Assembly: GCA_020718645.1 (NCBI GenBank)
Contig: DYRQ01000006.1
Coordinates: forward strand, 1 to 53,316
DNA: 53,316 nt
Origin: Verrucomicrobium spinosum
Lineage (GTDB): Bacteria > Verrucomicrobiota > Verrucomicrobiia > JADLBR01 > JAIBCM01
Direction of reading: 5' to 3'
In this document: positions 51,124 to 53,243 of the stretch, piece by piece
Layout: every line of letters starts with the position of its first letter
Numbering within the stretch: the first letter of the stretch is position 1
Notes under the pieces: generated by a model
Told to the model about the DNA's origin: nothing
The model's input: only the letters and a program-made list of their open reading frames with translations
The model's database searches: none
Program-made: the position numbers and the translations under genes

Positions 51124-51828
51124 TCAACCCGTCTCTTGACCCCACCTTTGCTGGGCTGTCATGGGAAAATCTTGTTCTTGCAACCCAAACCCCTTCTGGA
51201 TTTCAGAAAACTCGGCTCGCATCCACTCTGAAGCGCGTTGGCATGCCTCCTGTGATCCGCCACACTCTTCCACGCACAGCGGAGGACCCACCGAGATAAA
51301 TATCTGCGTGCTGCCCGGCCACCACGCGGAGGCTCGGTAGAGTTTATCAGCTCCCACAATCAACATAGGCACCAGCGGCACTCCCGACATGCGGGCGAGC
51401 GATCCCATCCCAGCCTCCAGAGGAGCCCCGAAAAGAAGCGAGCCTTCTCGCTGCCGTATCCCACCCTCAGGAAAAATCCCGACCGGCGCCCCTGCCTTCA
51501 GAGCCCGGACTATTTTCTTGGTCGCCTGCCGATCCACAGACGCCCGGTTCACGGGAATGCTCCGAATCCCGTCGAAGATAGCCCCCATTAACTTGGAAAC
51601 ATAAAGATCCCCAGCGACCACCCAAGTCATGTGTCTCGGCAAAACAGTCGTGATCAACGGCGGATCAAAGTGGCTGATATGGTTGCCCACGAGCAGGAAT
51701 GCCCCGCTGCGAGGGATATGCCCGATACCAGAAACCCTCAAATCCAGCGTGAGCCTACTCAAGCACCAGACGGTGGCGTAAAGCAAATCATAGAACCAGC
51801 CGGGCCTGCGAAAATCAGTGTCAGTCAT
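51124..51828 (-). CDS. plsC: 1-acyl-sn-glycerol-3-phosphate acyltransferase (PlsC family)
   Basis: NHISHFD (HxxxxD), SIPVNR, GIFPEGG, VPLVP. Confidence 0.88.
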
Positions 51829-51841
51829 GGTGTCAGAGCAT

Positions 51842-51880
51842 AAAAAAACCCCTCCCAACAAATGATGCGGGAGGGGTTTT
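51842..51880 (-). terminator. Intrinsic terminator after the SWIB gene
   Basis: Perfect 12-bp inverted repeat aaaacccctccc (51845-51856) / gggaggggtttt (51869-51880); gives a 7-U tail on the minus strand. Confidence 0.85.
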
Positions 51881-51891
51881 CTAACAGAATC

Positions 51892-52158
51892 TCAGCTTAC
51901 ATGAGCACTGACCAACTTGGTCATCTCGAACATGGAAACAGTATCTTTGCCACCAAAGATAGCCTTGAGCTTATCATCGGCATTGATGTTGCGCTTGTTC
52001 TTCGCATCTTGGAGATTGTTCTTCTTGATGTAATCCCACAGACGCTTGGTAATCTCCGTGCGGGGTATGGGCTCGCTGCCCACCACCGCTGCTAATATAG
52101 CATCGGGCTGCACGGGCTTCATGAACTTGGTGTTCGGTTTTTTGGTTTCGCTTGGCAT
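51892..52158 (-). CDS. Stand-alone SWIB/MDM2 domain protein
   Basis: FMKPVQPDAILAAVVG...PRTEITKRLWDYIKKNNLQDAKNKRNINADDKL...MFEMTKLVSAH. Confidence 0.93.
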   Translation of the reverse strand: MPSETKKPNTKFMKPVQPDAILAAVVGSEPIPRTEITKRLWDYIKKNNLQDAKNKRNINADDKLKAIFGGKDTVSMFEMTKLVSAHVS

Positions 52159-52184
52159 AAATGTTCTCGTCAATCCTGAGATGC

Positions 52185-52682
52185 TCAGCTCTTAGCCTCG
52201 GGAGTTTTGGATGCGGCCCAACGACGGCGCTGCGCAGCGGCAATACGCTCACGAGCTTCAGGGCTGATGTTGCGGACTTTCTTGTCTTTTTTGACCTTCG
52301 CAGGCTTGGCTGCTTTGGCTGCTTTTGCTGCTTTGGCGGTTTTCACTTCAAGTTTGAGCGAGTCAACGGCGGCGCTGGACTTGGCCCAGCGGGCTTTCTG
52401 CGCGGCAGCAATGCGGGCGCGGCCAGCAGCGCTCATGTTACGCTTTTTGCGACCACGACGGACGGGTTCGGCTGCATCAAGAATGCTCTCAACCTTCTTT
52501 TTACGACCACGGCGGCCTTTGGTCACGGGAGCTTCATCTGCGGCTGTTACACTCTTTGCTGCAGCGCCGAATTTGCTGAGTATGGCGATCAGCTCCTTTT
52601 CGAGCGATGCGATTTTATCTTTTAATGTTTGTATCCGCTGAAACTCAGCGGCTGACAAATTCAATAATGGGCTTTGAATCAT
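52185..52682 (-). CDS. Basic Lys/Ala/Arg-rich putative nucleoid-associated protein
   Basis: N-terminal coiled coil, RGR motifs, AAK repeats and a duplicated S..(G/A)R.RIAAAQ..RWA motif; 26 bp upstream of SWIB. Confidence 0.8.
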   Translation of the reverse strand: MIQSPLLNLSAAEFQRIQTLKDKIASLEKELIAILSKFGAAAKSVTAADEAPVTKGRRGRKKKVESILDAAEPVRRGRKKRNMSAAGRARIAAAQKARWAKSSAAVDSLKLEVKTAKAAKAAKAAKPAKVKKDKKVRNISPEARERIAAAQRRRWAASKTPEAKS

Positions 52683-53243
52683 ATGTCGCGGTTGTCGCGC
52701 CGGACTTAGCGTAAGTCAACTCTTTTTATCTCGAATCAAACAAACCATCAAAGTCAGGCGCTGATGAAAGTAAGTATTCCCACGGAAAAACTGTAATCTC
52801 CCGCCCCACTACCCCCATGTCTCTAGGCGCAGGAAGTAATCACCTGCCAACCTTGTCCGAGATACCGAGAAACAGGTGAAACTACCGATTCTGTATTATT
52901 TTAATTATGAGACAAAGTCTATTATCCCCCCCCGTTGGACGAACAGCCCCACAGACACCAATTCCGAAAAGCTCTGCAGCATGGCATGCTCATGGAACTT
53001 TTCCCTTGCAGATCCACCTTGGGTGGAGGAAGAGATTCCAAATCTTACTCCAGACTAATTTGAACCCACAGCCAGACTCTCCCCAGGCAGGATAGGGGCT
53101 CACAACAATGGCTAGAATCCTCTGACCGGGAAATGAGCCCATAGAACTTCCTTGATCGCACCAAAAAAGGAGGGCACACAAAAACGGGTTGCGTTTTTTT
53201 ATTTACGAACAGCCCCTTTCATCTAGTTTATGAGGCTAGCCCC

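Follow-up and report, generated by a model that had tools for sequence, protein, structure and literature searches.

Two short genes followed by an intrinsic terminator lie on the minus strand at positions 51843-52682 of a 53,316-nucleotide stretch of Verrucomicrobium spinosum DNA (the window), which comes from a soil Verrucomicrobiota genome (G000). The upstream gene codes for a strongly basic protein of 165 residues with a repeated helix containing tryptophan (the W-helix), and the downstream gene codes for a stand-alone SWIB/MDM2-domain protein. We estimate at about 50% the probability that these genes form a probably bicistronic cassette, specific to the order, for two small basic proteins that associate with the chromosome. 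SWIB is already known, and a small basic oligomerizing nucleic-acid binder is a familiar kind of protein; the W-helix family is absent from the libraries and literature searched.

To our knowledge, almost everything learned about nucleoid proteins comes from model Proteobacteria, Firmicutes, and Actinobacteria, and we know of essentially none characterized beyond HU in Verrucomicrobiota and Acidobacteriota. These two phyla dominate many soils. Since the W-helix family is very large, sharply conserved, unannotated, and apparently built on an H-NS-like design, it is a concrete candidate for this gap. The order-specific operon also gives one of the rare genomic clues to the function of bacterial stand-alone SWIB proteins. 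Together, the cassette and the family offer a testable lead to what may be chromatin proteins of major soil phyla.

Results

Organization of the two-gene locus

The features of the locus are listed in Table 1. A sequence-only reading of this DNA had described both open reading frames with their coordinates, the motifs, the 26-nt gap, and a strong terminator, and every one of these items was found again in the sequence. The terminator hairpin has a fold energy of -26.8 kcal/mol (z = -4.8; 0 of 200 shuffles were equally stable) and lies 10 nt beyond the SWIB stop codon. A scan of the minus strand detected no terminator in the spacer between the two genes, and the short gap, the uninterrupted spacer, and the terminal hairpin agree with the proposal of a compact two-gene unit. 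A similar terminator is present 3' of the SWIB gene in a relative from the same order (G302, locus L008). The ATG start of the 165-residue frame is backed by a like N-terminus in the relative P0054 (MNEQSPLLTLS...).

Table 1. Features of the basic protein-SWIB locus, in window coordinates
Feature	Position	Strand	Basis or remark
Basic-protein gene (165 aa, pI 11.2, 17.9 kDa)	52185..52682	-	ORF; family profile A1, E 4.5e-17
N-terminal amphipathic helix, residues 11-44	52551..52652	-	4-3-4-3 hydrophobic spacing; AF2 pLDDT 94-96
First RGR hook KGRRGRKKK, residues 55-63	52494..52520	-	Sequence; relatives with RGRP core at matching position
Second RGR hook RRGRKKR, residues 75-81	52440..52460	-	Sequence; direct repeat D3
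W-helix repeat 1, MSAAGRARIAAAQKARWAK, residues 83-101	52380..52436	-	Family consensus; AF2 pLDDT 92-95
Lys/Ala-rich inter-repeat linker, KTAKAAKAAKAAKPAKVKKDKK, residues 114-135	52278..52343	-	Low to medium pLDDT
W-helix repeat 2, ISPEARERIAAAQRRRWAA, residues 139-157	52212..52268	-	Family consensus; AF2 helix 141-159, pLDDT 90-94
Intergenic spacer, 26 nt	52159..52184	-	Basic-gene stop ends at 52185, SWIB ATG at 52158
Stand-alone SWIB/MDM2-domain gene (88 aa, pI 9.7, no Lys-rich tail)	51892..52158	-	PF02201, E 3e-30
Intrinsic terminator, GC-rich stem and U7	51843..51882	-	Fold energy and shuffles; closes the two-gene unit

Downstream of the pair is a gene for a PlsC-type acyltransferase (PF01553). 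The mechanical TTG start of this frame (51861) falls within the SWIB terminator hairpin, and an ATG at 51826-51828 is the more likely start. Upstream, a divergent tRNA-Thr(TGT) gene is located 560 bp away. This intergenic region (52683-53243) is unusually long; no Rfam element, sigma-70-like promoter, or repeat array was found in it.

The SWIB protein of the window

The product of the second gene scores 104.2 bits against PF02201 (cut-off 25), covers model positions 1-74 of 74, and was found again in a whole-genome search. By these sequence measures it is an ordinary stand-alone SWIB protein, full-length like Waddlia Wcw_0377, Chlamydia trachomatis CT460, and plant SWIB-4. SWIB genes have been reported in ~60% of Verrucomicrobia, and ChIP-seq found the stand-alone SWIB protein Wcw_0377 bound along the whole Waddlia chromosome (PMC6426960). 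For plastid SWIB-4, a review (PMC4154389) of the work of Melonek et al. (2012) describes DNA binding, compaction of nucleoids, and complementation of an E. coli hns mutant. The earlier claim that a SWIB gene directly follows the basic gene is borne out by the PF02201 match, and an association of stand-alone SWIB proteins with DNA is documented in these two papers (PMC6426960, PMC4154389).

SWIB-4 has a Lys/Ala/Pro-rich, H1-like tail, which is missing from the window's cassette SWIB. Such tails occur on the cassette SWIBs of four relatives from the order (G301-G304), on f63 orthologs, and on a second SWIB protein of G000. The gene for the latter lies on the minus strand of another contig (C82:17223-17444; locus L002 1495-1914), and its product of 139 residues has a tail of ~60 residues fused N-terminally to the SWIB domain. 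This paralog adjoins a glycoside-hydrolase-like gene and has no W-helix gene near it.

The basic protein is predicted to be modular

The basic protein contains 26 Lys, 17 Arg, and 37 Ala residues. Its N-terminal helix includes LSAAEFQRIQTLKDKIASLEKELIAIL, and the Leu/Ile positions of this helix are conserved throughout the family; given its predicted structure, the helix is presumed to be a coiled-coil oligomerization element. The two RGR hooks are specified by a duplicated 19-nt stretch of DNA (D3), whose copies are 54 nt apart and 89% identical, and the DNA of the inter-repeat linker is built of 9-nt tandem repeats (D1).

Modeling with AF2 and the family alignment produced helices at residues 11-44, 85-123, and 141-159, with block pLDDT of 90-96 in the helix cores and a pTM of 0.29. 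The helices were not positioned relative to each other and the linkers were disordered. The same outcome was obtained for a two-repeat relative, P0075 (pTM 0.28). These pTM values, together with confident helices that stand apart on disordered basic linkers, indicate that the modeled protein is modular and extended rather than globular. The H-NS-like layout proposed earlier, with a putative coiled-coil helix, RGR hooks, and basic helices within 165 residues, is therefore recognizable in the sequence.

The RGR hooks were compared across the family. Of 264 members, 14 (~5%) have a canonical RGRP core, whereas shuffling predicts 1.1 and never gave more than 5 in 500 rounds; the position of the core is always between the N-terminal helix and the first W-helix, as in KRGRPRK or RRGRPPG. 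Orthologs in the same order have RGRGRPPGG, RRGRPPGSG, or RRGRPPR at the hook position (G301-G303). The hooks of the window protein (RRGRKKK and RRGRKKR) contain no Pro, and hence lack the R-G-R-P core of an AT-hook; they gave no match to Pfam AT_hook. DNA-binding families in Pfam, NCBIfam, and PDB likewise gave no match for the basic protein. The RGR(P) hooks are the only feature that specifically suggests DNA, an indirect hint at the level of sequence.

We also considered a resemblance of the W-helix repeat to the minor-groove helix of NUMOD3 (PF07460). This candidate was rejected: only 2 of 30 family members matched PF07460, at E 7.3; neither G000 nor the other carriers had a NUMOD3 match at E<=0.01; and the W-helix profile gave no score to a real NUMOD3 endonuclease with filters off.

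A large family of W-helix proteins

No described family could be assigned to the basic protein, as had been suspected: searches of Pfam, NCBIfam, PHROGs, PADLOC, and PDB returned no relative. Sequence searches of PDB gave nothing meaningful, whether the query was the protein itself, the profile of the whole family, or a profile of the repeat (26 residues). Scans of relatives with the other four libraries likewise assigned no family, and 30 relatives compared with Pfam produced only noise at E<=10. A word-seeded search identified 930 relatives, and all named ones are called 'hypothetical protein'. We found no description of the W-helix family in the literature on the motif and on nucleoid-associated proteins (NAPs) of these phyla.

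The family was defined by a profile (A1) that combines an N-terminal helix, L(S/T)xxQLxxAxxIKxxIxxLExxL, with at least one basic helix of the form S-x-x-x-R-x-R-I-x-A-A-x-K-x-R-W-A. The window protein conforms to both elements (E-value in Table 1), and its N-terminal helix and both W-helices align with those of its relatives. The general plan consists of the N-terminal helix, L(S/T)xxQLRxAAxLKxKIxxLExxLAxILG with 4-3-4-3 spacing, a variable basic linker, and one to four repeats, mostly two or three. The W-helix comprises 19-26 residues, and its consensus over 291 units from 120 relatives is KKKR(K/G)-M-S-A-A-G-R-A-R-I-A-A-A-Q-K-A-R-W-A-K-V-K-A. In these units, which were defined by their R-W pair, Ser is conserved at 97%, Ile at 89%, the central Ala pair at 95-96%, and the Ala after Trp at 99%; R-W-A is invariant in independent alignments. 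Such near-invariance over 291 units shows that the repeat motifs did not arise by chance. In our own reading of the consensus, a helical wheel would have an all-Ala face and an I/Q/W/V face, with Arg and Lys between them.

When 1.84 billion representatives were searched with the profile and no filters, 8,182 clusters (50% identity) matched at E<=1e-3 and 3,133 of them at E<=1e-10. Every cluster found is 105-240 residues long, and the family has a median pI of 11.8. GTDB species genomes contain at least 265 confirmed loci. Among the matches listed, carriers are mostly Verrucomicrobiota (Limisphaerales, 'subdivision 3', Chthoniobacter, and Prosthecobacter), Acidobacteriota (Terriglobia), and Binatia, mainly as soil and peat MAGs; the family is equally common in Acidobacteriota and Verrucomicrobiota, and Chlamydiae, which are rich in SWIB, are absent. 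Within the window's phylum the distribution is patchy, with 8 of 301 sampled genomes positive, a figure that may be an underestimate since only 15 candidates were scored per genome. The sequence-only reading had connected the pair with the condensed nucleoid of PVC bacteria; given this patchiness and the equal frequency in Acidobacteriota, such a connection is not supported.

Pairing of the two genes across genomes

Linkage of the two genes in relatives, which the sequence-only reading had proposed as a check, held within the window's order and nearly vanished elsewhere. Nine genomes of the order were compared. Six carry the basic gene, and in all six the SWIB gene is located directly downstream on the same strand, with 26 to ~110 nt between the genes. 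These six genomes represent four genera and three families. The pair is flanked by tRNA-Thr and an acyltransferase in the window, by GlmS and a NagZ-like gene in G301, and by aconitase and rpsI-rplM in G302-G304. Because the flanks are fully different between lineages and the pair is intact, the two genes have been kept as a unit while their surroundings changed. In the other three genomes, which lack the basic gene, there is one SWIB gene each and no W-helix gene beside it.

A SWIB gene within 3 kb was seen at only two of the best 80 loci in species genomes. One is in the same-order genome G304 and the other in a Chthoniobacter genome with a divergent pair; besides SWIB in these few cases, no recurrent neighbor could be named over the 80 loci. 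Three genomes of the same class that belong to other orders (G048, G123, and G153) contain both genes in unlinked positions, and of 32 genomes with the family, 24 lack a SWIB gene altogether. Pairing is conserved only in the window's order.

Two arrangements deserve separate description. In the Chthoniobacter sp. MAG (JANOBH010000131.1; L085 2612-3366), a SWIB gene on the minus strand and a two-repeat W-helix gene on the plus strand are divergent neighbors whose starts are only ~60-100 bp apart; the two genes adjoin here, in a different order, independently of the window's cassette. On contig C234 of G308 (L012 1-524), SWIB is preceded, 29 bp away, by only a frame of 37-48 residues with one W-helix (MDGRKGKNKRKMSAEAKAKIGAATRARWAKLKSEQAS). 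This frame has an in-frame stop upstream, and the contig begins 110 nt upstream of it; the frame represents a decayed copy or a mini-protein.

Discussion

Relationship to known DNA-associated proteins

H-NS, Lsr2, and MvaT work on a common principle: an oligomer with multiple weak DNA-binding elements coats or bridges DNA. Like H-NS/StpA, MvaT, Lsr2, and Rok, the basic protein is small and basic, and has an N-terminal oligomerization helix (here predicted), a flexible linker, and an RGR-type hook. Unlike this group, with which it has no sequence relationship, it has one to four isolated basic W-helices in place of a globular C-terminal DNA-binding domain. Searches for H-NS (Histone_HNS), Lsr2, and MvaT gave no Pfam or NCBIfam match at E<=1, and the AF2 model contains no globular domain.

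Other resemblances are more limited. The protein shares disordered basic segments with R-G-R(-P) cores with HMGA and CarD-type AT-hook proteins; in contrast to these, the window hooks are RGRK without Pro, and hooks are an accessory of the W-helix family rather than its defining part. With histone H1, Hc1/Hc2, and AlgP-type Lys/Ala repeat proteins it has in common the inter-repeat stretch KTAKAAKAAKAAKPAKVKK and a very high pI, but the likeness is confined to a low-complexity Lys/Ala linker of 22 residues, whereas the conserved parts of the family are the coiled coil and the W-helices. The window protein has no Pfam or NCBIfam match to histone H1 or Hc1. Since each test by HMM or defining motif was negative, the basic protein lies outside the H-NS, Lsr2, MvaT, Hc1, and AT-hook families. 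For the cassette as a whole, no SWIB operon with a coiled-coil or W-helix protein was found in the literature searched.

A proposed role and its alternatives

In the reading that we favor, the N-terminal coiled-coil helix (~35 residues) would make dimers or higher oligomers, and the disordered basic linker would contribute RGR, AT-hook-like hooks for the minor groove. The one to four W-helices (S-x-x-G-R-A-R-I-A-A-A-Q-K-A-R-W-A-K), with Lys-rich spacers between them, would serve as weak DNA-binding elements. By analogy with H-NS, an oligomer with many weak DNA contacts could coat or bridge DNA. In the window's order both genes would be co-expressed, and the two proteins, perhaps in cooperation, would probably influence the architecture of the nucleoid or transcription on a global scale. 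Since all nine genomes of the order encode HU, the basic protein would add to the standard NAP and not replace it; a role as an HU substitute was rejected on this ground. That the W-helix is an unrecognized DNA-binding element, and the family a new NAP class, is a tentative proposal to which we give clearly less than even odds. If true, this family of >8,000 clusters would be a major overlooked H-NS-like class in soil Verrucomicrobiota and Acidobacteriota. The stronger version, in which a new H-NS-like bridging class recruited SWIB as a direct physical partner in the window's order, seems distinctly improbable.

The adjacency of the two genes could have simpler causes. Linkage, or SWIB itself, is missing outside the order, so that the cassette could be a neutral juxtaposition peculiar to this lineage. 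The proteins would then act independently, and the basic one might, for instance, protect against stress or desiccation or bind polyanionic granules. Genomes of other orders that contain both genes without linkage, the variable spacing within the order, and the predominance of soil and peat MAGs among the carriers listed are all in line with this explanation. Nevertheless, we consider it unlikely, because adjacency and orientation have outlasted three full changes of flanks over three families, which is not expected of neutral synteny, and because a terminator is kept 3' of the pair with none inside it. Alternatively, the basic protein may bind RNA or the ribosome, and its position next to SWIB may be meaningless. 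Helices that are rich in Arg and Lys and have a conserved Trp are reminiscent of arginine-rich RNA-binding motifs, and the W-helices could equally bind RNA, either as part of an RNA chaperone or as an arginine-rich-motif helix. The tRNA-Thr gene in the window and rpsI-rplM in G304 are neighbors in line with such a role, and the family has no conserved DNA-related neighbor. These tRNA and ribosomal-protein neighbors differ between lineages, however, while the sole recurrent neighbor, SWIB, is DNA-associated, and the RGRP cores are enriched and fixed in position; a role in RNA binding thus appears rather unlikely as well.

The sequence-only reading went further and proposed that the RIAAAQxxRW helix is clamped in the SWIB cleft in the way that p53 is bound by MDM2, the two proteins forming a physical two-component chromatin module. 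SWIB and MDM2 have a helix-binding fold in common (cited in PMC6426960), and the candidate partner is an amphipathic helix with a Trp. The tight cassette of the order, kept in four genera despite altered flanks, the second, divergent juxtaposition in Chthoniobacter, and the single W-helix remnant directly upstream of SWIB in G308 may be counted in favor of this clamp. So may the situation in family f1, where the lone SWIB of the three genomes without the basic gene appears by sequence to resemble the tail-bearing paralog located elsewhere in G308; as only this paralog-like SWIB is kept there, the cassette may be gained or lost as a unit. The helix itself, however, is a poor match to that of p53: it is highly basic with an all-Ala face, and it lacks both the F-x3-W-x2-L pattern and the i/i+4/i+7 hydrophobic triad. 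The consensus has Gln at -4 from Trp (Ala in some units) and Val, Ile, or Ala at +3, and both window repeats have Gln and Ser at these positions. Moreover, the motif is equally invariant at the 78 of 80 loci without a SWIB neighbor, most carrier genomes have no SWIB gene, and the SWIB-rich Chlamydiae are not among the family matches listed. SWIB binding therefore cannot explain the near-invariance of the helix. The MDM2-p53-like lock is the least supported part of that reading, and we regard it as very doubtful; an order-specific interaction between the basic protein and SWIB is possible.

Copy number and repeat variation in the family

Several genomes have more than one W-helix gene. G048 has three (C7:3307-3627, C16:19838-20167, and C16:29767-30090), two of which are 10 kb apart on one contig, and several MAGs supply two of the best 80 loci each. 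The number of repeats varies from one to four across the family. The closest relatives, from metagenomes (P0002-P0006 and P0011), contain three or four near-identical LSPEARERIAAAQRARWAA units per protein, which suggests that the repeat has recently expanded in tandem or evolves in concert. Finally, one metatranscriptome contig of 159 nt maps to a Chthoniobacter homolog and shows that this homolog is transcribed.
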